This document shows positions 15,383 through 51,534 of a stretch of 52,029 nucleotides of DNA, piece after piece. The stretch spans positions 1-52,029 of the IMG/VR virus record IMGVR_UViG_3300031953_000021, one strand, 5' to 3'. The stretch is from a virus. Taxonomy: Duplodnaviria; Caudoviricetes. Both the position numbers and the translations under genes were made by a program. The notes beneath the pieces are model-generated. The model saw only the letters and a list, made by a program, of their open reading frames with translations, was not told the origin of the DNA and did no database searches. How positions within the stretch are numbered: position 1 is the stretch's first letter; each line of letters starts with the position of its first letter.

Positions 15383-15766
15383 ATGGACGCTGGAATCCCA
15401 GTGTTTGATTTTGCTAGTCCGTGGGTTGCAATCATCCAGATTGTGCTCTTCTATGTTCTGCCTCGTGTGGTGGGGCTTGTCTCCGATGTGAATGCTTCAG
15501 CGCTTGCTAAGGGTCTGTTCCTCGGTGCGTTGTCGGTGCTTGCTTCGGCTCTGACGTTCTTGCTCGATGTGGCCGTTGCTGATGCGTGGGCGGCTCTTGA
15601 CTGGACGGCGTTTATCAACGTTGTGGTCAATGCTGCGATTACGTGGGTGTTGGCTCAGCAGGTGTTTGATCGGATCATCAAGCCGTCGGGTCAGGCTGCT
15701 TCTGACTCTGCTCACGGTGTATCGTTGATTCCGGCTGCTGCTCCTGTGACGGGGGTTTCAGAGTAG
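15383..15766 (+). CDS. Holin-like membrane protein
   Basis: 3 hydrophobic segments; LPRVVGLV..A.AKGLFLGALS pattern of actinophage holins; last gene before terminator. Confidence 0.65.
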   Translation: MDAGIPVFDFASPWVAIIQIVLFYVLPRVVGLVSDVNASALAKGLFLGALSVLASALTFLLDVAVADAWAALDWTAFINVVVNAAITWVLAQQVFDRIIKPSGQAASDSAHGVSLIPAAAPVTGVSE

Positions 15767-15784
15767 GAGCCTCTTCGGATGGTT

Positions 15785-15825
15785 CGGCCCTTGGCTTTCG
15801 GGTAGCCAAGGGCCGTTCTGCGTTT
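15785..15825 (+). terminator. Terminator ending the late/lysis operon
   Basis: 12-bp stem CGGCCCTTGGCT/AGCCAAGGGCCG then TTCTGCGTTT. Confidence 0.75.
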
Positions 15826-15830
15826 CGGGA

Positions 15831-15906
15831 GTCTAATCTGCTTGACATCATGTGGGACGCTGGCTAAAGTTGAATCATCCGATACAACCACTGGAAAGGT
15901 TCCACT
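15831..15906 (+). promoter_or_regulatory. Promoter/operator/RBS cassette A
   Basis: GTCTAATCTGC-TTGACA-N17-TAAAGT-TGAATCATCCGATAC..CTGGAAAGG. Confidence 0.9.
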
Positions 15907-16362
15907 ATGAACGCCACCGACACTCCCCGCTTCTCGAAGGTGATCTTCGCTGAAGGTCGCACCACTCGTATCTCGGCTCAGACAGCCAGCCGCGACTTCA
16001 CTGCGAAGATCGTTCCCGGCGAATACGTTCTCGAATATCTGAACGGTCGTCAGTACCCCTTGCAAGACGGCCAGTTCCCCTACTACGTTCAGGCGCGAGT
16101 GCAGATCGAGTGCCCGGAGCGCGTCGAGTCGACCGTCGAATTTGGCGGCGTCTGCCTCGGTGCGGAAGTTGTCCCCGCGAGGACTCAGGATCACACGATG
16201 CGTTGGTACGCGCACGAGGTCGAGAACGAAGGCCGCGACGAGCGCCTACAAGGTGCGTTCACTCGTTGCTGCGACGGCACCGGCTGGACTGGGAACCCCC
16301 GCGAGCGTTGCGCCGACCACTATGACATCCCGTCGTACGACTTCGAGGAGGTGTCCGCGTGA
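15907..16362 (+). CDS. Hypothetical protein
   Basis: Directly behind cassette A RBS. Confidence 0.7.
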   Translation: MNATDTPRFSKVIFAEGRTTRISAQTASRDFTAKIVPGEYVLEYLNGRQYPLQDGQFPYYVQARVQIECPERVESTVEFGGVCLGAEVVPARTQDHTMRWYAHEVENEGRDERLQGAFTRCCDGTGWTGNPRERCADHYDIPSYDFEEVSA

Positions 16363-16649
16363 GCGACATCACGAGTTACGAGACGATCCCTGAAGGTTGG
16401 GAGCACGAGGTCGCGGAACCTGACGTCGGCATCATGGCTGACGCGATGACGCACCTCCCTTGTCTTGACTCGAAGCACGAGGGTGCCTGTGATGTGACCG
16501 GGGGCGAAGCTGGCGATCGGTTGCCTCGCGGGATGCAGAAGTTCTCGGAAGTCTGGACTTGCCGCGACTGTGGAACCGCTGAGACGTTCCACACTGAGGT
16601 GTTTACTGCTTGGGACGAACCTGATTATGACAAGGACGTGGAACTGTGA
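16359..16649 (+). CDS. Hypothetical protein (CxxC)
   Basis: GGAGG RBS; GTGA coupling. Confidence 0.65.
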   Translation: MSDITSYETIPEGWEHEVAEPDVGIMADAMTHLPCLDSKHEGACDVTGGEAGDRLPRGMQKFSEVWTCRDCGTAETFHTEVFTAWDEPDYDKDVEL

Positions 16650-16825
16650 ACGTCAAGCAAGGTAGACTGCAAGAAGTAGCTGGTTTGGCCCTCGTTGGGG
16701 TCGGATTGGTTGTTCTGTTCCATTGGGCTCTCTTTACGGAGACGCTGCGGAACGGACAGCCGCTATTGAGCGTTTTGCTCGTGGTGGTAGGAGTTTTGAT
16801 ACATCGAAGGAGCAATAGTGGCTGA
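16646..16825 (+). CDS. Small two-TM membrane protein (59 aa)
   Basis: Read manually: MNVKQGRLQEVAGLALVGVGLVVLFHWALF..LLSVLLVVVGVLI; overlaps both neighbours. Confidence 0.5.
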   Translation: MNVKQGRLQEVAGLALVGVGLVVLFHWALFTETLRNGQPLLSVLLVVVGVLIHRRSNSG

Positions 16826-17009
16826 CAAGCACGCCGGGGTTGTGGCTCGGCTCAAGAAGTCGATCGCCAAAGTCGACGCGGCCCAGTCAGACCGGGACCG
16901 TTTGATCGTTGAGGCGGTGAAAGAGAGCGTGCCTGTGCCGCAGATCGCAGCAGCCGTTGGCCTGTCTCGGGCTCGGGTGTACCAGATCATGTCGGACCAG
17001 CCCAAATGA
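16818..17009 (+). CDS. Small HTH DNA-binding protein
   Basis: RDRLIVEA..VPVPQIAAAVGLSRARVYQI; AAGGAG RBS. Confidence 0.85.
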   Translation: MADKHAGVVARLKKSIAKVDAAQSDRDRLIVEAVKESVPVPQIAAAVGLSRARVYQIMSDQPK

Positions 17010-17854
17010 GTTGGGTAAATCCGACGAAGGGGTGGGGCAACCCGAAGTCGGTGTCGTTCGAGAAGCGGCACGTTCGGATGGTGGTTGTCGATCATCACCG
17101 GCTGAAAGTTCATCGTGTGCTCGCCCCCGTGGTGGAGCGCATTCTCCTCGACCTCGCCGCGCAAGGCTTGACGGCTCAGACTGAGGGTTGGACTGCTGGC
17201 GGTGACGGTCGAGAGTTTCGCATCGTTGTCGACGGCATGGGTCCGGATCGGACGAACGCTGCAATGCTCGCGTATGGCTTTGGGCCGTCGGGAGCGGAGA
17301 ACACGTACCGTTGGCTCGCGGAGAGCCCGCCGGAAGAGGCTGAGGCTTCGCCACAGGCTCCTGAGAGCGCGAAAGTGGTCGAAAGCTTCCCAGTACCCAC
17401 GGCAATCGTTCCGGAGGCTCTGACGGGCGACGACAGGCTTGGTTCTCGTGATCTGGCCGTTGGCGACATCGGGATCGACGTGCTGACGCTGCAAGTGTTC
17501 CTGAGCGCACCCCGCACCGGAGTTTACGATCTGGACACCGAAGCTGTCGTCAGGCGGTTCCACGAACGCAAAGGGTTCCTCTCGGATGGGTCGATGCCGC
17601 TGTCGGCACAGCGCTGGATCATCCCTGAGACAATCGAGCGTTTGCGGACAGGGGCAGCAGGGCTCACTGTCATTTTGTTGTCGGCGGCGTTGATCGCGAA
17701 GCAAGTGCTGCCGATTGATTCGGAGGTAGAGTCTCGATACACGGTCGCTCTGGCGAACATCGTTCGGGACTACCGTGAAAGCATTGGCCTGCCACGGTCA
17801 GAGGTTGTCGATTCGCCAACGTGGGCATCGTTGGTGGATCAGCCACGAAGTTAG
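17006..17854 (+). CDS. Peptidoglycan-binding-domain protein
   Basis: LAVGDIGIDVLTLQVFL..TGVYDLDTEAVVRRFH..G and a second degenerate repeat ending VVDSPTWASL. Confidence 0.65.
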   Translation: MSWVNPTKGWGNPKSVSFEKRHVRMVVVDHHRLKVHRVLAPVVERILLDLAAQGLTAQTEGWTAGGDGREFRIVVDGMGPDRTNAAMLAYGFGPSGAENTYRWLAESPPEEAEASPQAPESAKVVESFPVPTAIVPEALTGDDRLGSRDLAVGDIGIDVLTLQVFLSAPRTGVYDLDTEAVVRRFHERKGFLSDGSMPLSAQRWIIPETIERLRTGAAGLTVILLSAALIAKQVLPIDSEVESRYTVALANIVRDYRESIGLPRSEVVDSPTWASLVDQPRS

Positions 17855-17864
17855 AATGAGAGAA

Positions 17865-17893
17865 GCCCCCCGGCCTCGGCAGGCGCGGGGGGC
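17865..17893. terminator. GC-rich hairpin, possible terminator
   Basis: GCCCCCCG..CGGGGGGC; no clear T-tract on the + strand. Confidence 0.45.
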
Positions 17894-17959
17894 ATATAAG
17901 TCGATTGCGAGCGACGGTTCTAGTGTAGTGCATTAGACCGTCAGATAGGACGGTTCGGC

Positions 17960-18694
17960 ATGACCGTAAACCGAGTTCCAGAAGTTCCGTTTGCACAGAT
18001 CGCGAATGCGATGCTCCGAGACGTCAGGTTGTCGTACAAAGCACGTGGGTTGCTGGCGATGGTCTTGTCGAATACTGGGGACTGGGATACCCCGCGAGAG
18101 TGGTTAGTTTCTCAGTCGGAGAAGGACGGTCGAGAGTCTGTCCAGTCTGCTCTGAACGAGTTGACAGAGCTTGGGTATCGGCGGGTGACGCGAGGCAACA
18201 ACCCGGAAAATGGCTTGTTTCAGACCATCGTGGAATGGTCGCATGAGCCTAACCAGTGGGACCGACCGACGGGAAACCCGACGGACGGACAAACCGACGG
18301 TCGGAAAACCCGTCGGACAACAGAAAACAATCCAGAACACTATTCCGTAACTAAAGTTACGGCGGAATCGGCTCAAACGTTGATTGCTGAGTGGATTGAT
18401 CATTGCGCTTCTAGACCCCCCGGCAGAGTGATCGGGCAGGTAGCGAAAGAGGTCGGGGCGCTCCTCGGAGAAAGCATTCCCTACGAGACGGTTCGCGAGG
18501 GGCTTGGTCGTTGGCATCGGCTCTCTTTGCATCCGTCTGCTGTGGCTTCAGTCGTGAATGAAGTGTTGAATCCGGCAACGGCGTCGAGGGGCAAGAATCC
18601 GTCGACAGCGATACAGGCAGGCAAGAGTCTCGTGGAGCGGTTGGAGGCGGAAGCTGCGGCTCAGTCTCGGATGATCGAGGGCGCACGATCGTGA
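17960..18694 (+). CDS. Replication initiator protein (N-terminal wHTH)
   Basis: FAQIANAMLRDVRLSYKARGLLAMVLS..DGRESVQSALNELTELGY; internal iteron-like repeats. Confidence 0.85.
   Translation: MTVNRVPEVPFAQIANAMLRDVRLSYKARGLLAMVLSNTGDWDTPREWLVSQSEKDGRESVQSALNELTELGYRRVTRGNNPENGLFQTIVEWSHEPNQWDRPTGNPTDGQTDGRKTRRTTENNPEHYSVTKVTAESAQTLIAEWIDHCASRPPGRVIGQVAKEVGALLGESIPYETVREGLGRWHRLSLHPSAVASVVNEVLNPATASRGKNPSTAIQAGKSLVERLEAEAAAQSRMIEGARS
18261..18347. repeat. Putative origin: four 16-bp imperfect tandem iterons plus A-rich tail inside rep
   Basis: ACCGACCGACGGGAAA/CCCGACGGACGGACAA/ACCGACGGTCGGAAAA/CCCGTCGGACAACAGA. Confidence 0.7.
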
Positions 18695-19098
18695 ATCTGA
18701 TCGAAGCGGCGAAGTTCTTGACAGTCTCGTCGGCGATGACGGGCCGGGTGGCCGACGAAGATCAAGCGGAGGCATGGTCGGTGATTCTCGATGACATATC
18801 ACTCGGTGATGCTTTGGCTGGCCTACGGGCTCACTACCGGGCTTCACGCTTCCCGATAATGCCCGCCGATATTGTCGATCAAGTCGGCCAACTAAAGGTC
18901 GCTACGGAGCGGGAAGAGCACCGGGAAGCGATCACCTCGAAGCGTCGAAGCCAGAACGCTGCACACCGCAGGGAACTGTTGGCGAAGTCGGGAGCTCTGC
19001 GCGACACTGATCTGTTGTGGCTGGTGGTTGGCTGGAACGGTGATGACGAGGCGAACGATCCGCTGGCGACGACGATCACGTCCACGAGCATAGAGTAG
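18691..19098 (+). CDS. Helicase loader/inhibitor-like protein (G39P-like N-domain)
   Basis: EAWSVILDDISLGDALAGLRAHY..IMPADI; directly after rep. Confidence 0.6.
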   Translation: MNLIEAAKFLTVSSAMTGRVADEDQAEAWSVILDDISLGDALAGLRAHYRASRFPIMPADIVDQVGQLKVATEREEHREAITSKRRSQNAAHRRELLAKSGALRDTDLLWLVVGWNGDDEANDPLATTITSTSIE

Positions 19099-19107
19099 GG
19101 TGCAAGC

Positions 19108-19362
19108 ATGAAACCTTCTAAGGATCGTCTTGCTGCTGAGGTCGCTGCTGCGGCTGGCCGCGCTGATGTTGCTGCTGCCGCGTCGAAGTCGACTCGAACC
19201 CGGCGGGATGCGACTATGGCGCGTGCTCACCGGGACGGCTTGTCGTATGCGGAGTTGCAGGCTGCGACGGGACTCACGAGAACGGGTGTCTACAAGGCTT
19301 TGTCGTCGGCTGCTGGTGGGTCGCTGAAATCAGTGTCGACAGACGAGCCGATTGTCGACTAG
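19108..19362 (+). CDS. Small HTH DNA-binding protein (probably leaderless)
   Basis: RDATMARAHRDGLSYAELQAATGLTRTGVYKAL; TAGGGT-N6-ATG. Confidence 0.8.
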   Translation: MKPSKDRLAAEVAAAAGRADVAAAASKSTRTRRDATMARAHRDGLSYAELQAATGLTRTGVYKALSSAAGGSLKSVSTDEPIVD

Positions 19363-19371
19363 ACTGGACTC

Positions 19372-19509
19372 ACGCAAGTTGGTCGAGCGGTGGTATCCCG
19401 TTTAGGTTTCGTCGCTGTTGTCCTGATCGGGTTTCTAGGTTCCTTTCCAGCCGCTTGCGTATATCCCCCGGTGCAACCGCGAAAGCAACCGCACCGGGGG
19501 ATTCTCTTT
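19372..19509 (+). ncRNA. Candidate structured small RNA carrying an anti-Shine-Dalgarno sequence
   Basis: TCGACA-N18-TAGACT promoter (19336-19365); internal stems; 12-bp terminal hairpin plus T-rich tail; no ORF; GGTTCCTTTCCAG at 19438-19450. Confidence 0.55.
19463..19509 (+). terminator. Terminator hairpin
   Basis: ATCCCCCGGTGC/GCACCGGGGGAT then TCTCTTT. Confidence 0.75.
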
Positions 19510-19588
19510 GTCTAATCTGCTTGACATCGGCGGGAACGTATCGCTAAAGTTGAATTATACGAAACACCACCTCTGGAAAGGTTCCACA
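19510..19588 (+). promoter_or_regulatory. Promoter/operator/RBS cassette B
   Basis: GTCTAATCTGC-TTGACA-N18-TAAAGT..CTCTGGAAAGG. Confidence 0.9.
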
Positions 19589-19867
19589 ATGAACGCAGTA
19601 ACCGAGACTCACACCGTTGAACTCACCGACTACAACGGCCTCGACATCGTGACCGAAATCAACGCGGCAATCGCCAGCGACCTCGTAGTCACGATCAACG
19701 GCGACACGGTGAACACGCGATTCGGTCGGAAGGTATCCCACTGGGGAACCGGAAGCGTCAGCTTCGAGGTCGACTCAAAGCGTGGAAGCGTCAACACTCG
19801 CACGATGTGGTTGAAGCCGGGTCGCACGATCAACTGGACCTCGACCCCTCTCGCTCCTCGCGCCTAA
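19589..19867 (+). CDS. Hypothetical protein
   Basis: Behind cassette B RBS. Confidence 0.7.
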   Translation: MNAVTETHTVELTDYNGLDIVTEINAAIASDLVVTINGDTVNTRFGRKVSHWGTGSVSFEVDSKRGSVNTRTMWLKPGRTINWTSTPLAPRA

Positions 19868-19891
19868 CGGCCTCCGGAAAGGAACCCCGTA

Positions 19892-20266
19892 ATGCAAATG
19901 TTGCCGCCGTCAGTGTTCATCCTGACGGGACCGGCCACCGCCGAAACTTCTGAGGGGTACCGAATCCGGTACCCGTCGGGGGCTCGGTTTGTGGCGGACC
20001 CTGTGTCGTTGGGATACCTCCCGTTGGATCGTGGCACTCGCCGGTCGATGGGCGAGAGGTACGCCAAGGCGGTCAGGCTCTCGGTCAAAGCTCCGCTTGC
20101 CAAGACAATCGGGTTGCGCGAGCACCTTCTGTACCTCGGCGGGCCGGGAGCGGTTCCGCATCTGGGCAACCGGCACCAAGCGGACTGGGCCGACATCGAA
20201 GGGTTCGTCGTGATGTACGACGGTGGCCGGTATAGGTTCGACCCGAATCGCCGCCGGGACTATTGA
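19892..20266 (+). CDS. Hypothetical protein
   Basis: GGAAAGGAACC RBS. Confidence 0.65.
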   Translation: MQMLPPSVFILTGPATAETSEGYRIRYPSGARFVADPVSLGYLPLDRGTRRSMGERYAKAVRLSVKAPLAKTIGLREHLLYLGGPGAVPHLGNRHQADWADIEGFVVMYDGGRYRFDPNRRRDY

Positions 20267-20339
20267 CAAACCAGCTTGACACTTTGTGAGACGTTCGCTA
20301 AAGTTGAATCATCCGATACAACCTCTGGAAAGGTACCCA
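20265..20339 (+). promoter_or_regulatory. Promoter/RBS cassette C
   Basis: TTGACA-N17-TAAAGT-TGAATCATCCGATAC..CTCTGGAAAGG. Confidence 0.9.
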
Positions 20340-20627
20340 ATGTCTGCACTCACTGTTCACGGAATCGACTACAAGTCGAAGGACGCGATCCGCGACCGCA
20401 TCAAAGAGCTTCACAGCCTGAACAGCCAGTTGGGAGCCAGCGACGGTCGAGTGACCGAAATCGACGCTCTCTTCGATTGCCTGAAGCGCAACCGCCCGCA
20501 GGCACCAGTGTTCTCGATCTACTACCGGACAGCCACCGGCAAAAAGGGCCGGAAGGATTGTGACAGCCGCGAGAAGCAGGCCCGCTTCATCCGGACCACG
20601 CCGCACGCCGTTACGTTCTTCAGCTAA
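20340..20627 (+). CDS. Hypothetical protein
   Basis: Behind cassette C RBS. Confidence 0.7.
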   Translation: MSALTVHGIDYKSKDAIRDRIKELHSLNSQLGASDGRVTEIDALFDCLKRNRPQAPVFSIYYRTATGKKGRKDCDSREKQARFIRTTPHAVTFFS

Positions 20628-20753
20628 AGAGTTTCGGCTGATACAGCCGCAAAGAGGTAACTACACAAGTAGTAGCCCGTGGGCCGAGCGTTTTCTTGGT
20701 GTCTTATAAGTCTCGGCCCACGCATTACCCCCCCCAAGTAGAAAGTAGACCCA

Positions 20754-21041
20754 GTGACTCACTCATACGATCCGTTCCCGGCCTCTCCGGAGGAAGTAAT
20801 TTCGCCAGTGCAGGCACGCCATGTTCTGCACCAGTTCGGCGCGACCGGCGGCTACCAAGCTGGCTCGTTCACGACTCACCTTCTCGCCGCAATCGCCGTG
20901 GCCGACACCAGCAACAATGCTCGATTGTCGAGGGGCTTCCCCGGATACGTGGCGGCGGTTGGCCTTGCCCAAGGTGACGTGAAAGGCATCGAGAAGTTGC
21001 AGAAAATTGCCGTCTCCCCTGAACCCCCGTCAGATAACTAA
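20754..21041 (+). CDS. Hypothetical phage protein
   Basis: GSFTTHLLAAIAVAD..N.ARL..GFP pattern resembling a recurring phage family. Confidence 0.65.
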   Translation: MTHSYDPFPASPEEVISPVQARHVLHQFGATGGYQAGSFTTHLLAAIAVADTSNNARLSRGFPGYVAAVGLAQGDVKGIEKLQKIAVSPEPPSDN

Positions 21042-21107
21042 TCGTCATATAGGCCCAGATGTCAGTCAAACCGGCTATACTGGGATGACTCAAGGAAAGG
21101 AACGACA

Positions 21108-21848
21108 GTGACCAACACTGAAACCCCCGAAGCCGTCATTACGCCCTCGGAATCACCACGAAGTATCGCAAAACTGGCAATGGCTCTCGCCAAGTTCCAA
21201 GGCGAAATGCCGTCAGTGCATAAAGGCAAGACAGCGAAAGTGCCGATGAAGGCCGGTGGTTCGTACTCGTACAAGTACGCCGACCTCGCCGATGTCACCG
21301 CCGCCGCCATGCCGATCCTCTCGAAGCATGGGTTGGCATTCATCGTCCAGCCTGAAGAGGGTAGCCGTGGGTTCATTCTTCGCGGACTGCTCGTGCACGA
21401 ATCGGGGGAGTTCATTGAAGGCATCCTCCCGCTCCACGGCAACGCCAATCAAGAGCTTGGTTCGTCGCTGACTTATCTGCGTCGGTACCTGCTCGGTGCG
21501 CTCACTGGAATCGTGACGGACGAAGATGAGGACGGTGCGGCAGGCAACACGGCTGAGCGTACGACGAAGGTACCGGCACGCCAGCGACAGAGCCGCGCAA
21601 AGCCCGCTTCTGCTTCAGGTGAAGAGTCACCCGAATCGTCTGCACCGCCAGCACCGCCCGCCGCTCCCGTTGCCGCTGATGTCGCGTGGTCTGACAAGAT
21701 CACTGAAGCCGCTACCTATGACGAGCTAACGGCTGTGTTCAATGAAGCCGATGCTGCCGGAGTGTTCGGCCACATGATCGGCGAAGAAACCGTCAAATCG
21801 CGTCTGTACGCACGTCGTACGGAACTGACCTCGAAGGATGCCCAGTGA
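21108..21848 (+). CDS. ERF-family single-strand annealing protein
   Basis: ALAKFQ..YKYADLADV..PILSKHGL..GSSLTYLRRY..GIVTDEDEDG. Confidence 0.9.
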   Translation: MTNTETPEAVITPSESPRSIAKLAMALAKFQGEMPSVHKGKTAKVPMKAGGSYSYKYADLADVTAAAMPILSKHGLAFIVQPEEGSRGFILRGLLVHESGEFIEGILPLHGNANQELGSSLTYLRRYLLGALTGIVTDEDEDGAAGNTAERTTKVPARQRQSRAKPASASGEESPESSAPPAPPAAPVAADVAWSDKITEAATYDELTAVFNEADAAGVFGHMIGEETVKSRLYARRTELTSKDAQ

Positions 21849-24663: not shown

Positions 24664-24698
24664 CCACCGTAGTAAGAATCAATCGAAAGGAATCTGAC

Positions 24699-27037: not shown

Positions 27038-27117
27038 GTCTAGGGGACTTGACACCACGCGAGACGTCTAGCTAAAGTTGGATCATACGAAAGATCACCT
27101 CTGGAAAGGAACTGATC
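27038..27117 (+). promoter_or_regulatory. Promoter/operator/RBS cassette E
   Basis: GTCTAGGGGAC-TTGACA-N18-TAAAGT..CTCTGGAAAGGAAC. Confidence 0.9.
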
Positions 27118-27823: not shown

Positions 27824-27885
27824 TTGACTTTACGCCTGACAGTCAAATAAACTAGACTCATACGATCCACTAGGAAAGGAACATC
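27824..27885 (+). promoter_or_regulatory. Promoter cassette F (operator over -10)
   Basis: TTGACT-N18-TAAACT; GTCAAATAAACTAGAC 27842-27857; GGAAAGGAAC RBS. Confidence 0.8.
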
Positions 27886-31910: not shown

Positions 31911-31966
31911 CGTTTGGTGTCTAGTAGGCTATACTAAAGGGAAGCCGATGGAAAGGAACCCAAACA

Positions 31967-38465: not shown

Positions 38466-38539
38466 CTTGCTTGACAGGGTGTTGGGGGTTCGCTAGAGTT
38501 GGATCATCCGATACACAAACTGCTGGAAAGGCAAAGCTC
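38460..38539 (+). promoter_or_regulatory. Promoter/operator/RBS cassette G
   Basis: GTCTAACTTGC-TTGACA-N17-TAGAGT-TGGATCATCCGATAC..CTGGAAAGG. Confidence 0.9.
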
Positions 38540-38798: not shown

Positions 38799-38879
38799 GT
38801 CTAACTTGCTTGACACTTTGTTGGACGCTGGCTAAAGTTGAATCATCCGATACACCGAATCTGGAAAGGCTCAAAGTTC
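38799..38879 (+). promoter_or_regulatory. Promoter/operator/RBS cassette H
   Basis: GTCTAACTTGC-TTGACA-N17-TAAAGT-TGAATCATCCGATAC..CTGGAAAGG. Confidence 0.9.
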
Positions 38880-39529
38880 ATGGACATTCTCACCGCCGGA
38901 ACCGTCGTCACCACTGGCGCGATCTTCAAGAAGCGCACCGCGACAGTGATTCGTGGAAACGAAGCAGACGAGTGGAACCCCGCCGGTGGTGGCCCCGTCG
39001 ACATCCAGTTCATCCCTGCCCGTCGCGGGTTCCCGCTCACCGACGTAATCACGATGGACCCCCGCGACCTGATCGTCGCCTAACCCTCTCGTTCTCTGGA
39101 AAGGAACCCAATGTTCAAGTTCACCCGTACCGACAAAGGCGTGATTCGCGCCGTCATCATTTCAATCGAGATTGACCTAGAGCAAGGCAAGCTCGGTCAG
39201 CTTTCATTCGAGCAAGTCCAGTCCAACATCACCGCCCGCCTCGCCAGCCTGAAGGCTGCAACCGAGGAGCGGGACCGTTGACCGTCACTGAAGTCGAGCA
39301 CGACTGCATCACCTACGAAGGTGGGTGGAAGCGTGTTCGCGTCCCCGGCCTCGCCCTGATCGGCGGGACCAAGATCGTCGCCCCGTGTGGGTGCGAGTGG
39401 TCGCTCAAAGCGGACATCACGAAGTTGTCTGCGAACTGCAAGCGGAAGTCGTTTGCGGAGTCGGGGCACCAGTTCAAGACTGCCGTGGTGGAGTTCATGC
39501 GGGCAGAGCGTCAGGTGGTGGCGAAGTGA
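38880..39529 (+). other. Small hypothetical genes: 38880-39083, 39111-39281, 39278-39529
   Basis: CTGGAAAGG RBSs at 38861 and 39096; TTGA coupling. Confidence 0.6.
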
Positions 39530-40306: not shown

Positions 40307-40380
40307 GTCTAACCAGCTTGACACTTTGTGAGACGTTCGCTAAAGTTGGATTATACGAAACATCCCCGGAAAGGAACCCA
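40307..40380 (+). promoter_or_regulatory. Promoter/operator/RBS cassette I
   Basis: GTCTAACCAGC-TTGACA-N17-TAAAGT..GGAAAGGAACC; 38 bp identical to cassette C. Confidence 0.9.
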
Positions 40381-40746: not shown

Positions 40747-40821
40747 GTCTAACTTGCTTGACACTCTGGTCAGCGTCGATTAGAGTTGACTTATACGATC
40801 CACCAAGGAAAGGACTTGATC
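40747..40821 (+). promoter_or_regulatory. Promoter cassette J with two operators
   Basis: GTCTAACTTGC-TTGACA-N17-TAGAGT; second palindrome GTCGATTAGAGTTGAC 40775-40790; GGAAAGGA RBS. Confidence 0.85.
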
Positions 40822-41765: not shown

Positions 41766-42446
41766 ATGCGTAACGTTGAACCAGTCCACTCAGAGCCCGG
41801 AGGCCACGGCAGCGAAGGCACTCGACAGACTCACCCGTCGTTCGCGGTAGTGTCCGTGACTCGGGGGCAGGGATCACCTCGTGCGTTGTTCCAGTCGGAC
41901 CTTCAGCACAACCAGTCGATCACCTTGCAAGTGTCGACGGCGGAGCGTGTGCGTGACCTCAACCACGACTGGGTTCACCCCCGAACGTCGTTGGTCGAAG
42001 TCGAAATGTCGTTGGCCCAGTGGGGTGCGCTCGTCTCGTCGGTTGGCATCGGCTCAGGTGTCCCGGTGACGTTGCGGTCGACTGCGACAGATCACCAGAT
42101 TCCGTCGTTGCCTTATGAGCCGCGCATTGCGGAGTCGATCCGTGAGACGCGGACGACGGTGACTGATCTTGTGGGCGAGATTGCGAACACGTTGGCTGCA
42201 CTGGAAGAAGCGATTGAGTCGAAGTCGGGGGTCAAGGTGATTCGGGAACGGCTGCGTGCGTTGCGGGCGAGAGTCGACAATGCTCCCGGCAATGCGGAGT
42301 ACGCGGTGAAGTCGGTTCAGCGGGCGACCGAGGAGGTTGTTGCTCAGGCGCGATCTGACATCGAGTCGCAGATGTTGTCGGCTCGTGGGTTGGTGGATGG
42401 TCCGGTGTCGATTGAGACGCCCAAGTTCGAGGAGTTGGAATCGTGA
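41766..42446 (+). CDS. Hypothetical phage protein with C-terminal coiled coil
   Basis: HPSFA..LFQSDLQH..EVEMSLAQW..GSGVPVTL; GAGGAG RBS. Confidence 0.75.
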   Translation: MRNVEPVHSEPGGHGSEGTRQTHPSFAVVSVTRGQGSPRALFQSDLQHNQSITLQVSTAERVRDLNHDWVHPRTSLVEVEMSLAQWGALVSSVGIGSGVPVTLRSTATDHQIPSLPYEPRIAESIRETRTTVTDLVGEIANTLAALEEAIESKSGVKVIRERLRALRARVDNAPGNAEYAVKSVQRATEEVVAQARSDIESQMLSARGLVDGPVSIETPKFEELES

Positions 42447-42688
42447 GCATGGGTGATTGGGATGACCACGAAGCGAACGTGGGGCCGGGTCGGGACTCGA
42501 CTCGATACACCAAGTGCCGGTACTGCTCCCAGCGGCTCCCGCTCCGAGAGATTGCGGAGCACGCCCGGACGAAGCACCCGGTCGAGAGTCTGCGGTTCAC
42601 GAACTGTTGGCACTGCAAAGAGAAGTTTCCCCTGAACGCTATTCGGGAGCACGCGAGTGTGTGCGCCGGGAAAGGAACGGCAGCATGA
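42443..42688 (+). CDS. Tandem Zn-finger protein
   Basis: CRYC-x10-H-x4-H and CWHC-x10-H-x3-C. Confidence 0.6.
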   Translation: MSMGDWDDHEANVGPGRDSTRYTKCRYCSQRLPLREIAEHARTKHPVESLRFTNCWHCKEKFPLNAIREHASVCAGKGTAA

Positions 42689-43247: not shown

Positions 43248-43309
43248 CACTCTCGCCGGGGCTGGCTAAAGTTGAATCATCCGATACAACCTCTGGAAAG
43301 GTACCGATC
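43233..43309 (+). promoter_or_regulatory. Promoter/RBS cassette K
   Basis: TTGACA-N17-TAAAGT-TGAATCATCCGATACAACCTCTGGAAAGGTACC (downstream part identical to cassette C). Confidence 0.9.
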
Positions 43310-43504: not shown

Positions 43505-43533
43505 CCTCTCAACCGTTCTGGAAAGGACAAACA

Positions 43534-44395: not shown

Positions 44396-45105
44396 CGTCA
44401 CCGACCGCCGGGAAAACCGACCGACCGGAAACCCGTCGGTCTACAGAACACAATCCAGAACACTATTCCGCACCTAGCGGTGCGGGGAGCTTGATCGCTC
44501 CCATGCGTTCAATCTCGATCCGACAGCCGTGGGCGTGGGCGATTGTTCACGGTCGGAAGGATGTCGAGAACCGTCGGTTTGGCACACGCCTCGGCCCCGT
44601 TGCGATCCATGCGTCTTTGACGTTCGACCCCTCGGGACCGGAGTTCGCTGCGATGAGAGAAGCGTGGGTGAAGCTGGGGATGCGAGAGTTCCCCCGTGTG
44701 GTCGGCCCGATGCGACAGGGTGAACCGCACTTGCAGGTTGGAGCGATTATCGGGGTGGTCGACATCGTTGATGTTCACTTGGTGAGTCCGACGTTCGGTT
44801 GCTATCACGAGGTCGACATGCTCGGGTGGATGCCGCTCGATGGGTCGGATGCTTCAGCGCCGGGGTGGGAGCCACGTTTCTGTTCTCCGTGGGGCGAGGT
44901 GCCGGATCGTCCGGCGGTTGGGGCGGAGCGTGCGTTGCGTCATCATGTGTTGGCGAACCCTCGACCTCTTGCTAATCCGATTCCGTTTCGTGGGCACCTC
45001 GGAGTTCGACAGTTGCCGGATGGGGTGGAGGAGGCTGTGCGGGTGCAGGTCGCAGGCTATCAGTCAACTCGGCTTGACATCGAAGTCAACCGTTCGCTAG
45101 AGTAG
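44392..45105 (+). CDS. ASCH-domain protein (true start may be 44503)
   Basis: MRSISIRQPWAWAIVHGRKDVENR..VAIHAS..GAIIGVVDIVD..P.PFRGHLG. Confidence 0.8.
   Translation: MTSPTAGKTDRPETRRSTEHNPEHYSAPSGAGSLIAPMRSISIRQPWAWAIVHGRKDVENRRFGTRLGPVAIHASLTFDPSGPEFAAMREAWVKLGMREFPRVVGPMRQGEPHLQVGAIIGVVDIVDVHLVSPTFGCYHEVDMLGWMPLDGSDASAPGWEPRFCSPWGEVPDRPAVGAERALRHHVLANPRPLANPIPFRGHLGVRQLPDGVEEAVRVQVAGYQSTRLDIEVNRSLE
44400..44470. repeat. Second copy of the rep iteron/origin sequence
   Basis: Three 16-bp units ACCGACCGCCGGGAAA/ACCGACCGACCGGAAA/CCCGTCGGTCTACAGA plus 21 bp identical to 18327-18347. Confidence 0.85.
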
Positions 45106-45141
45106 GATCATCCGATACACCACCTCTGGAAAGGTCACACA
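45063..45141 (+). promoter_or_regulatory. Promoter/operator/RBS cassette L
   Basis: GTCAACTCGGC-TTGACA-N18-TAGAGT-AGGATCATCCGATAC..CTCTGGAAAGG. Confidence 0.9.
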
Positions 45142-46082: not shown

Positions 46083-46160
46083 TCCATCGGACTAGACAAC
46101 AATCTTCCACTCAGCTAGAGTTGGATCACCTGAAACAATGCTCTTGGAAAGGAGCCCCCA
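46082..46160 (+). promoter_or_regulatory. Promoter/RBS cassette M (divergent)
   Basis: GTCCATCGGAC-TAGACA-N17-TAGAGT-TGGATCA..TGGAAAGGAG. Confidence 0.75.
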
Positions 46161-49330: not shown

Positions 49331-50368
49331 ATGCCGAAGCGCAAGGCTGTCCGCAAGGAGCGGATATACAGCGACGAGGTTGTGGAGCGGGAAGCAGCGA
49401 AGTTCGGTCGCGATCTGAACGACGCACTGAACGAGGTTGCAGCGTCGGCCCGGTCGGAGTCTGTGCTTCGCAGTATCCAAGCTGGGGATGCAGCGGCAGC
49501 GGTCGCAGCAGTCAACCTCGACCCCATGCGGTTAGCGATCGGCGGGCAGCAGGATCGGCTCGGTGGCGAGTATCTTCGGCAGGCACTTATCACTGCCGGC
49601 AAAATGACGGCACCGCAGGCGATCCTCCACTTTGACATGATCGAACCGCAGGCGGTGAACTACGCGGCGCAACGGGCTGGTGCGCTAATCAGTCATGTTC
49701 AGCAGCAGGTCCGCGACACCGTGAACGGGCTGGTTGTCGATGCGTTGCAGGGCGATTACACCGCGAGGACGTTGGCGCAGCAGATCGAGCGGGCAATCCC
49801 GTTGACGGCACGTCAGGCTCAGACAGCGAAGAACGTCTACACGAAAACGTTCGAGCGGTTGGTGGCTGAGGGCAAGAAGGTTGAGCGGGCTGAGTTGCTT
49901 GCACAGCGGGCCTCGGCGAAGTCGGCGGCGAATGCGTTGAAGTCGCGGGCGTCGGGCATTGCTCGCACAGAGTTGATGTCGGCGTCGAACGCGGGCCGGT
50001 TCTCGGGCTTCTCCTCGACTATCGCGTCTGGGCTGGACTCGAAGGAGTCTCGCAAAGAGTGGATCACCGGTGGCGACCCTTGCCCGATCTGTGACCCGCT
50101 GGAAGGCGAGACAGTTCAGTGGGATGAAGAGTTCTCGGTGGGACTGTTGATGCCCCCGGCGCATCCGAATTGTCGATGCGTTGGTGTATTCCTCCCCGGC
50201 AAACGGACTCAGAAGCAGCTACACCGCGACGGAACGTATTCGTTCGACCCAACACTCGGGCAGTCGATTCGGCTGGCTCAGATAAGCCGGGAATACATTC
50301 ACGGCCGTTTATCCAAAGTGGCCCACGATGAAGCGTGGGACAGTATTCTCAATTTCAGGAGGTTGTAA
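49331..50368 (+). CDS. MuF-like minor head protein
   Basis: IARTE..KEW..CPIC..PPAHPNCRC. Confidence 0.9.
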   Translation: MPKRKAVRKERIYSDEVVEREAAKFGRDLNDALNEVAASARSESVLRSIQAGDAAAAVAAVNLDPMRLAIGGQQDRLGGEYLRQALITAGKMTAPQAILHFDMIEPQAVNYAAQRAGALISHVQQQVRDTVNGLVVDALQGDYTARTLAQQIERAIPLTARQAQTAKNVYTKTFERLVAEGKKVERAELLAQRASAKSAANALKSRASGIARTELMSASNAGRFSGFSSTIASGLDSKESRKEWITGGDPCPICDPLEGETVQWDEEFSVGLLMPPAHPNCRCVGVFLPGKRTQKQLHRDGTYSFDPTLGQSIRLAQISREYIHGRLSKVAHDEAWDSILNFRRL

Positions 50369-51534
50369 TGCAAATCACACCAAAGGTCATGTCGACCAAG
50401 AAGGCGATCCAGTTCGTTGAGGGTTGGCAAACATCACCGCCAGTCTGGGCGGGCTATTCGGAGGAGGACACCGAGTCGACTATCAACGCGCTCGCTTCTG
50501 CTTTGGCTGAGGCAGTCGACGCGGGGTGGGAGACGGTCCAGATCACGTTGGACGACCTCGACATCCGGGTCGAGCCCGAAACCGGTGTGATGGTCGGCTG
50601 GGTTCTGCCTGACGACCTCGCGTTCCAGTACCAAGTCGACGGCGGCGAGACTGATCTGCATGTGACGGTCAACTTCCTTGGCGACCGTGATGACTTGACG
50701 GTGGAGCAGACGCGCATCCTGACCGGTGTTGTTGCTGAAGTCGCTTCGACTACCCCGGCGCTGTTTGGTGTGTTCGACGGCACTGGCACGTTCGAGAACG
50801 AAGATGCAACAGTCTGGTTTGCTGTTCCGCATATCGAGGGTCTGATCGAGTTCCAAGAGCGCATGTCGGCGGCGCTGAAAGATGCAGGCTTCGAGCCGCG
50901 TGAAGATCACGGCGCGTACACCCCGCACATGACGCTGGCTTATCTCGATGCTGGGGAGGAGCCGCCCGCAGCGACGATCCCCCGGTCGGTGCCGTTCCTG
51001 CTCCAAGCGATTACCGTGTCGGTCGGTGGCACTCGATTCGACGTCGAGTTTGCTGACAACTATGACGCCTACTGGGTGTTTCAAGAGGCGGAGTACGAGG
51101 CCAATCCTGAGATGTGGCGCTCACGTGGTTACGTCCCGTTCGTGAAGAGTGCTATTGAAGCACCGCGTCGGTTCACCCTCGGCCCTTGGTATATCCCGAA
51201 TGAGGTCGATGCTCATGGCGACTGGACTGATCCAGATTCGTTGCAGACTGCGCTGTGGGGGTACGTCCGTTCGGGCTATCGGACTGTTCGGCTTCAGCAC
51301 GCGCCGGACACTGAGGCAGGCGAGTGGGTCGAGGCGATGACGCTCCCGATCGCGATGGAGTTCCCGGTGATTGACGTGAACGGAAACGTTGCTTCGCACC
51401 TGTACCCGGCGGGCACTGTTCTGCTGGGCGTGGTGTGGGAGCCGTGGGCGTGGACGCTCGTGTTGGAGGGCAAGATCACTGGCTATTCAATCGGTGGGTC
51501 GAGCATGTTGACCGACGAGCAGCTTCCTGCCTGA
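50368..51534 (+). CDS. Fusion of 2H phosphoesterase and XkdF-like prohead protease
   Basis: HVT and PHMT 2H motifs; C-terminal YIPNEVDAHGD..LQH..GKITGYSIGG. Confidence 0.8.
   Translation: MQITPKVMSTKKAIQFVEGWQTSPPVWAGYSEEDTESTINALASALAEAVDAGWETVQITLDDLDIRVEPETGVMVGWVLPDDLAFQYQVDGGETDLHVTVNFLGDRDDLTVEQTRILTGVVAEVASTTPALFGVFDGTGTFENEDATVWFAVPHIEGLIEFQERMSAALKDAGFEPREDHGAYTPHMTLAYLDAGEEPPAATIPRSVPFLLQAITVSVGGTRFDVEFADNYDAYWVFQEAEYEANPEMWRSRGYVPFVKSAIEAPRRFTLGPWYIPNEVDAHGDWTDPDSLQTALWGYVRSGYRTVRLQHAPDTEAGEWVEAMTLPIAMEFPVIDVNGNVASHLYPAGTVLLGVVWEPWAWTLVLEGKITGYSIGGSSMLTDEQLPA

Follow-up and report, generated by a model that had tools for sequence, protein, structure and literature searches.

The genome of the uncultured phage analysed here appears to encode a small RNA directed against the phage's own translation signals. 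We consider it fairly probable that this 138-nt RNA, predicted from the DNA sequence, pairs in trans with the GGAAAGG ribosome-binding site (RBS) of 18 phage genes and lowers their translation as a group, and we are confident that the underlying element is real, selected, structured and non-coding. Directly visible in the DNA are the sequence itself, a unique inverted copy of the shared site, purifying selection and kept base pairs. If the reading is correct, a single phage RNA would exert regulon-wide translational control via a private ribosome-site code, and the RNA/RBS pair could be used to tune expression in actinobacteria.

The genome and the setting of the RNA locus

The window, by which we mean the whole stretch of DNA analysed (52,029 nucleotides), is a complete 52-kb phage record with a 186-nt terminal repeat. 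An actinobacterial host is likely: the terminase shares 54-58% identity with the terminases of Microbacterium EC phages, and the capsid protein 47% with its counterparts in Arthrobacter phages. Neither an integrase family nor an antirepressor family was found among the 31 phage proteins scanned. The RNA locus occupies the space separating an 84-aa HTH-like gene from a repeated promoter cassette, of which the genome has about a dozen (Table 1). The product of the rep gene matches phrog_8064, and 10 of the 11 homologues of the 84-aa protein gave weak matches to the HTH family phrog_686 (best E 6.9e-5).

We also observed other features in this genome. Iteron-like repeats with a 16-nt period lie inside rep at 18261-18362 and recur at 44400-44485 in an unrelated gene (about 85 nt of context, 80% identity), and the gap preceding rep (window 17854-17960) contains a G/C hairpin that is kept in the related phage described below. 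At 50335-51534, a gene that adjoins a MuF-like gene combines a head maturation protease-like domain with a domain of the 2H phosphoesterase (2'-5' RNA ligase-like) type.

A metagenome scan for the cassette promoter returned 38 stretches, which gave five related fragments from one assembly. Since the five fragments are syntenic and non-overlapping, they are taken as one related phage, presumably a single genome; only one of them, L047, holds the RNA. Together they comprise 30,863 bases with 18 sense copies of the site, all before starts, and one inverted copy.

Table 1. Features of the RNA locus and the shared ribosome-binding sites in the window. All 18 RBSs (the 17 listed singly and the one at 19575) are targets as predicted from complementarity.
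Feature	Position	Strand	Remark
HTH-like gene, 84 aa	19108..19362	+	final gene in the rep / unknown gene / HTH run; 3' end contains the RNA promoter
Predicted SigA-type promoter TCGACA-N18-TAGACT	19336..19365	+	9/12 consensus; HTH stop codon opens the -10 box
Predicted non-coding RNA, 138 nt	19372..19509	+	fold z -4.2; identity to L047: body 83/91, core 77/79
Closing stem, 19372-19378 with 19454-19460	19372..19460	+	7/7 pairs kept, double changes in 2
Inner stem, 19397-19406 with 19422-19431	19397..19431	+	9/9 pairs kept, one U-G to C-G
Apical loop, 15 nt, invariant	19407-19421	+	within the inner stem
Anti-RBS segment GGTTCCTTTCCAG	19438..19450	+	sole CCTTTCC of the + strand; invariant in L047
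Terminator-like hairpin, GAAA tetraloop, short T-rich tail	19463..19509	+	10/10 pairs of the lower stem intact, U-A to C-G
Next cassette promoter TTGACA-18-TAAAGT and GGAAAGG RBS (19575)	19521..19585	+	RBS is a predicted target
Target RBS	15893..15899	+	9 nt contiguous complement
Target RBS	19876..19882	+	11 nt complement
Target RBS	20327..20333	+	9 nt contiguous, 12/13
Target RBS, ERF annealing protein gene	21094..21100	+	10 nt complement
Target RBS	27103..27109	+	12 nt complement
Target RBS	27873..27879	+	10 nt complement
Target RBS	31950..31956	+	12 nt complement
Target RBS	38525..38531	+	10 nt complement
Target RBS	38863..38869	+	9 nt complement
Target RBS	39098..39104	+	perfect, 13/13
Target RBS	40368..40374	+	11 nt complement
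Target RBS	40807..40813	+	8 nt complement
Target RBS	42669..42675	+	10 nt complement
Target RBS	43295..43301	+	9 nt contiguous, 12/13
Target RBS	43520..43526	+	10 nt complement
Target RBS	45128..45134	+	9 nt complement
Target RBS	46146..46152	+	9 nt complement

An inverted copy of the shared site within a predicted RNA

The genome contains 19 copies of the motif GGAAAGG. Of these, 18 belong to the + strand, all of them 6-10 nt before an ATG or GTG, and the lone inverted copy (- strand, 19442-19448) lies in the gap 3' of the HTH-like gene. An earlier note on this DNA had stated that the segment at 19438-19450 is the exact reverse complement of CTGGAAAGGAACC and that no start codon follows the inverted copy on the - strand; the former is correct, with a 13/13 match to the site at 39096, and the latter is true of both the window and L047. 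When the 13-mer was used as a query, 13 matches were found at up to 2 mismatches, against a mean of 1.04 in shuffled sequences (0/100 shuffles reached 13). The same note had listed 13 RBS sites, all placed correctly except 43294 (true start 43293), but 18 are present, and the five missing from its list are at 21094, 27873, 40807, 42669 and 46146. The sites have the properties by which start-associated sequences (SASs, and ESASs in Cluster EF) are recognized, in that an over-conserved RBS is found near non-structural gene starts in a single orientation, with a promoter cassette upstream of a subset of the sites.

The predicted promoter and the A at 19372 are where the earlier note had placed them, and the related phage has TCGACA-N18-TAGGCT. 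In 9 of the 11 HTH homologues the C-terminus consists of Ser-Thr and six variable residues, followed by the protein end. Such a conserved tail would be expected if the Ser-Thr codons had to contain the -35 box and the -10 box overlapped the stop codon; the promoter spacing in these nine is deduced from the protein tails and not from DNA. Two GTCGAC palindromes (19335-19340 and 19354-19359) overlap the RNA promoter, and the related half-sites GTCNAC or GTCTAA flank the cassette promoters; the palindromes are candidate operators for an HTH protein (that of 19108 or of 16818).

Folding reproduced both the inner stem and the stem between the 5' and 3' parts of the RNA that had been drawn before. 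The folding z value of the 138-mer was -4.2 with the terminal hairpin and only -1.6 without it, and folding energy alone is therefore weak evidence for the RNA body. As for the proposed terminal hairpin with a T-rich tail, the hairpin covaries, but the tail is weak and a consensus scan made no terminator call; the T-run is better in the relative than in the window. The promoter and the terminal hairpin are conserved in L047, and the transcript itself is predicted. The anti-RBS segment is not freely bulged, as had been suggested, but partly paired: opening the 13-mer would cost 7.0 kcal/mol, and opening its 7-nt core 4.2 kcal/mol. The most open part of the RNA is the apical loop (opening cost 0.86 kcal/mol), for which no enriched RBS target and no phage partner was found when it was scored against the phage RBSs. 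The claim that the RNA has no ORF was mistaken, since a 41-codon GTG ORF is present on the + strand at 19390-19515.

No Rfam family matches the RNA at E up to 1, 6S included, and its identification as a tRNA, 6S, 6C or c4 RNA was dropped for want of such a match. A 6S-like RNA was further set aside on its form: there is no long hairpin with an open central bubble, and the body is only 89 nt. We also rejected a reverse-strand decoy transcript, as no - strand promoter was found in 15500-21500, and a second pairing arm (19389-19397) directed at the 5' ends of the cassette leaders in a three-way junction, which could be drawn on paper but had none of the 18 RBSs among its top 29 non-self hits.

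Conservation of the RNA locus in a related phage

Between the window and L047 the structure is kept and the flanks diverge, which is the opposite of the pattern that the earlier note had named as speaking against the RNA (motif and structure varying while the flanks hold). Nine flanking proteins are 42-85% identical (62% for the upstream HTH-like protein), and four-fold sites are identical at 256/496 positions, as compared with 77/79 in the RNA core; the binomial probability is about 1e-19 against the four-fold sites and 2.5e-9 against the overall coding identity of 0.716. The RNA alignment of 140 columns contains 13 substitutions and 2 insertions, and all seven substitutions in helices keep pairing. 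Two pairs of the closing stem and one of the terminator stem have changed on both sides, and the inner-stem change from U-G to C-G is compatible with the + strand only. All 28 modelled pairs are kept, against 27-45% paired in slid controls, and a pair-shuffle control gave 55/500, which with two sequences only is not significant. Conserved structure and non-coding status are likewise judged from two distinct sequences only. The anti-RBS segment and the RBS consensus are both identical between the two phages, with no covariation within the family, and the L047 homologue of the gene after the next cassette promoter has lost its GGAAAGG site.

Elsewhere in the window, 126 nt (42442-42567) are 100% identical to the second phage in surroundings of 67-88% identity; this is likely a recent recombination tract.

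Searches of other collections yielded few copies. In cultured phages, blastn of the RNA gave 10 short chance matches, none spanning the RNA. Exact-pattern searches of viral contigs recovered a near-identical copy in 1/6 and 1/31 hits, the remainder being unrelated by eye, and none of the 7 hits in GTDB genomes was homologous. HTH profile scans found nothing but the near-identical copy in viral contigs and no match in metagenomes or genomes, and a handle search of 4 records returned one 16-nt chance match.

Complementarity to the shared ribosome-binding sites

The summed longest complement of the RNA body to the 18 sites was 180, against 105 +/- 9 in shuffles (0/5000 reached 180), and none of the 2577 other + strand 89-mers of the genome reached this value. 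The predicted duplexes with the 18 sites have energies of -14.9 to -23.3 kcal/mol and are stronger than that of the 16S tail at 17 of them. After the cost of opening both RNAs, the median net energy was -7.5 kcal/mol, with values below -5 at 15/18 sites. Among 30 other gene starts scored (two positions approximate), 28 had a complement of at most 6 nt, every structural gene included, and two non-structural genes near 24693 and 25685 had 8 nt. In a free duplex scan that allowed G-U pairs, 8 of the 29 top non-self hits were these RBSs; the best three were not.

The earlier note had described the RNA as a mimic of the 16S anti-SD. The actinobacterial 16S tail ...CCTCCTTTCT was found at up to 1 mismatch in 55/81 Actinomycetota genomes (52/78 without the three genomes marked as unpublished, G005, G022 and G052). 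The 13-nt seed has 7 nt in common with this tail, but its other 6 nt match phage-specific flanks. Because the complement extends over those flanks, the element fits an anti-phage-RBS RNA better than a 16S mimic. Moreover, the RNA matched its own sites over a mean of 10.0 nt and the sites of four Microbacterium phages over 6.1-6.8 nt. From the phage-specific seed flanks and this difference, we read the RNA as one that would be directed at the private RBS of its own phage and might affect host mRNAs only incidentally.

A second conserved hairpin was observed at window 20678-20725 and at about 100-150 on the - strand of L047. An 18-nt segment of its loop is invariant between the two phages, and its stem has undergone a double change from T-A to A-T. 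The loop shows complementarity to the leader of the 40807 cassette (-22.7 kcal/mol) and, to a lesser degree, to that of 27873. This hairpin may be a further antisense RNA or an inverted operator.

Proposed mechanism and alternative explanations

In the mechanism that we favor, the host SigA polymerase would make the RNA, or cleavage of the rep-HTH message would release it from the 3' end, and it would build up as a stable closed hairpin. The + strand is our inference from the T-tail and from the replacement of U-G by C-G, and we likewise infer transcription, pairing, timing and the sign of the effect. The partly open CCUUUCC would nucleate on GGAAAGG and extend into the phage-specific flanks to form 8-13 contiguous pairs. 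The 30S subunit would then be excluded and the strong cassette genes damped, and the structural genes, which have no site, would escape. A second layer of shut-off, which is speculation, may come from the HTH protein as a repressor of the same cassette promoters. The earlier proposal that the RNA silences the shared-RBS genes gains from the structured element and from predicted duplexes that beat the 16S tail at 17/18 sites; the description of these genes as early was drawn from their promoters. Against our model, the seed is partly paired (7.0 kcal/mol to open, with predicted net binding favourable at 15/18 sites), the free duplex scan ranks only 8 of these RBSs among its 29 top non-self hits, and about 60 other invariant bases, the apical loop included, have no explanation in it.

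Such bases would be expected if a real RNA acted mainly by binding a protein or a machine (the HTH protein, RNA polymerase, a ribosomal component or an antitermination complex), with the anti-RBS segment as part of a conserved surface or as a relic of an inverted leader. The entire core is invariant, beyond the seed, its most open part has no RBS target, and the Cluster K anti-SAS loop is an optional hairpin of a structured element of about 270 nt in the reported late-start gap. We nevertheless regard this explanation as unlikely, because a unique and invariant 13/13 match to the own-site consensus would have to be incidental, and Rfam contains no family that matches at E up to 1, 6S included. 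Host mRNAs could instead be the main targets, with the RNA serving as an anti-SD decoy on GAAAGGA-led genes or acting through an apical-loop seed and thereby freeing ribosomes. The 7 nt that the seed has in common with the 16S tail and the apical loop without a phage partner are in keeping with this. However, 6 of the 13 seed bases match phage-specific flanks and cannot be paired by the 16S tail, and any such RNA would strike the 18 phage sites harder, which makes host targeting distinctly unlikely. It is also conceivable that the pairing is real but activating or stabilising, in that the RNA opens or protects the cassette leaders or aids loading. In the distance from its -10 box to +1, the predicted RNA promoter is like those of the cassettes, which would allow co-expression with the targets, and a phage sRNA is reported to support the lytic cycle. 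Yet the SD itself would lie within the duplex, and the 16S tail would lose out to the RNA at 17/18 sites; we consider activation very unlikely indeed.

The locus directly follows the rep run, where a DNA element such as an origin or operator might be placed, and a tract of 126 nt elsewhere is 100% identical between the two phages, so that the identity here could have come from recent recombination between co-occurring phages. Nevertheless, the 13 substitutions and 2 insertions are spread over all 140 columns, 7/7 substitutions in helices keep pairing, the change from U-G to C-G fits one strand only, a promoter and a terminator-like hairpin stand on either side of the element, and the iteron-like repeats sit inside rep (18261-18316) and not at the RNA locus. 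We thus think that a DNA element or a recombination tract is a very unlikely explanation. A small hydrophobic peptide from the 41-codon ORF, or the RBS of a reverse gene, is extremely unlikely. The ORF is present, and both phages have an open hydrophobic frame of 16 codons. The start and end of the ORF, however, are frameshifted between them, it extends through the terminal hairpin, and 12/12 four-fold sites are unchanged (p about 4e-4), unlike what is seen in protein evolution. The frameshift and the unchanged four-fold sites indicate that the ORF is not the selected thing, and no reverse start codon is present in either phage.

Anti-site elements in other actinophages

According to the passages on SASs in Pope 2011 (PMC3203893), four K1 mycobacteriophages have a single SAS in the opposite orientation without a start, and either RNA or protein could be the SAS binder. 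The role of the SAS was still called unknown in 2024 in the corresponding passages of PMC11373665, which place a late transcription start in the Adephagia gene 92/93 gap. In Adephagia, the gap separating genes 92 and 93 contains a hairpin (z -4.7) whose loop, we found, is the inverted SAS. In seven K phages, picked for their pyrimidine-rich loop, double changes occur at 6 of the 18 stem pairs. Among the 11 K phages examined, the exact loop is present in 5, has drifted in 2 (Ekdilam and Shandong1), and is absent in 4 (Pixie, ShedlockHolmes, Pharb and Yuna). A test for covariation between loop and SAS in Cluster K was negative, as the SAS of Ekdilam and Shandong1 is of the standard form (11 sites per phage in 19-20 kb examined) despite their drifted loops. 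In the 50 of 56.7 kb of AnnaSerena examined, we counted 10 SASs, and an inverted one is lacking even when 2 mismatches are allowed; TM4 has none in the 30.8 kb examined. These K and AnnaSerena results count against the model. An anti-site RNA recurs, yet it cannot alone hold the SASs constant, since the SAS is fixed where the K loop has drifted or is absent.

In the late-leader gap of Cluster K, a TAGACT box is followed by a structured element that is conserved and about 270 nt long (L116:33590-33860, which is Adephagia 58590-58860; also L118 and L120-L128). It was found in 151 records by blastn, with no Rfam match in the nine K loci scanned, and may be an antitermination or other large leader RNA.

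In the gap after ssb, four EI phages (Matzah, Terij, Margaery and Kozie) and two EC-like phages (Teamocil and Merry) have a promoter-like box, a hairpin and a terminator-like hairpin. The post-ssb element complements the GAAAGG starts of its own phage better than any other window in Matzah (0/649 windows as good), Kozie (0/997) and Teamocil (0/1133), and is near the top in Merry (8/1137 windows as good). The Matzah gap was selected after its match had been seen, and the gaps of the other phages by synteny. The Teamocil element is without CCUUUC. By blastn, the EI, EC and K analogues have no homology to the RNA described here.

We noted some further details of these loci. The loop of the EI/EC terminator-like hairpin resembles the reverse complement of a repeated cassette motif (L023:12395-12435, and L067 to L071). 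The RNA region of Merry is annotated as a 47-aa hypothetical protein, probably wrongly. In Matzah, Terij and Margaery a loop (L023:12350-12372) is complementary to the RBS, the following 6 nt and AUGAC, and could thus mask the SD as well as the start codon; its - strand also reads like a 17-codon ORF.

Taken together, we put forward tentatively, as an idea that falls somewhat short of probable, that actinophages have repeatedly evolved an address-and-reader translation system, in which a private set of extended RBSs is switched off by one mirror-image RNA. The RNA described here would be its free-standing representative, with the K1 inverted SAS hairpin and the EI post-ssb RNAs as versions that arose independently. 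The role of the SAS has been open since 2011, and our finding offers a concrete, predicted RNA partner; if the idea is true, it would give the SASs their missing counterpart. It can be tested in cultured phages, namely Adephagia on M. smegmatis (public RNA-seq, given in the paper as GSE271014) and the EI phages on M. foliorum.

Comparison with known systems

In Firmicutes, C/U-rich anti-SD sRNAs such as RsaE and RNAIII use an anti-SD seed on several mRNAs; these are host regulators with UCCC loops. The phage RNA has no sequence or Rfam match to RsaE or RNAIII. The earlier note knew of no phage system of this kind. Full-text searching, which covered few subscription journals, found no phage RNA targeting a shared phage RBS, and to that extent the statement stands; it is too broad in view of three precedents, namely the 6C/B11 RNA, the c4 RNA and the SASs of Pope 2011.

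The sites resemble the SAS of Cluster K mycobacteriophages and the ESAS of Cluster EF Microbacterium phages, which the relevant passages of PMC3203893, PMC7302621 and PMC11373665 describe as an over-conserved 13-nt RBS before non-structural genes, with a frequent upstream promoter cassette and in one orientation save a single inverted copy without a start. The site CTGGAAAGGAACC differs from both consensus motifs as published in those passages, and the likeness is one of analogy without homology. The anti-site here belongs to a small predicted promoter-to-terminator unit, whereas that of Cluster K is part of a structured element of greater size, and 6/11 phages examined lack it or have a drifted form. 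In the passages on these motifs, the SAS/ESAS papers (PMC3203893, PMC7302621, PMC11373665) do not propose the inverted copy as a regulator.

The 6C/B11 sRNA of Actinobacteria resembles the phage RNA in that a single RNA represses many mRNA RBSs through a pyrimidine-rich segment; as described in 10.1101/2022.10.27.514065, it is host-encoded and uses two C-rich terminal loops against G-run targets. The phage RNA has no Rfam 6C match and lacks the two C-rich loops, and its seed, an internal and U-rich one, matches a site private to the phage. The c4 antisense RNA of P1/P7 is likewise a phage-encoded structured RNA that blocks translation by pairing around the RBS, according to the portion of PMC12197685 on c4, and the phage RNA differs from it in having no Rfam C4 match. 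The same portion (PMC12197685) has c4 controlling one antirepressor message in a temperate immunity circuit, whereas the RNA proposed here would address 18 dispersed genes.
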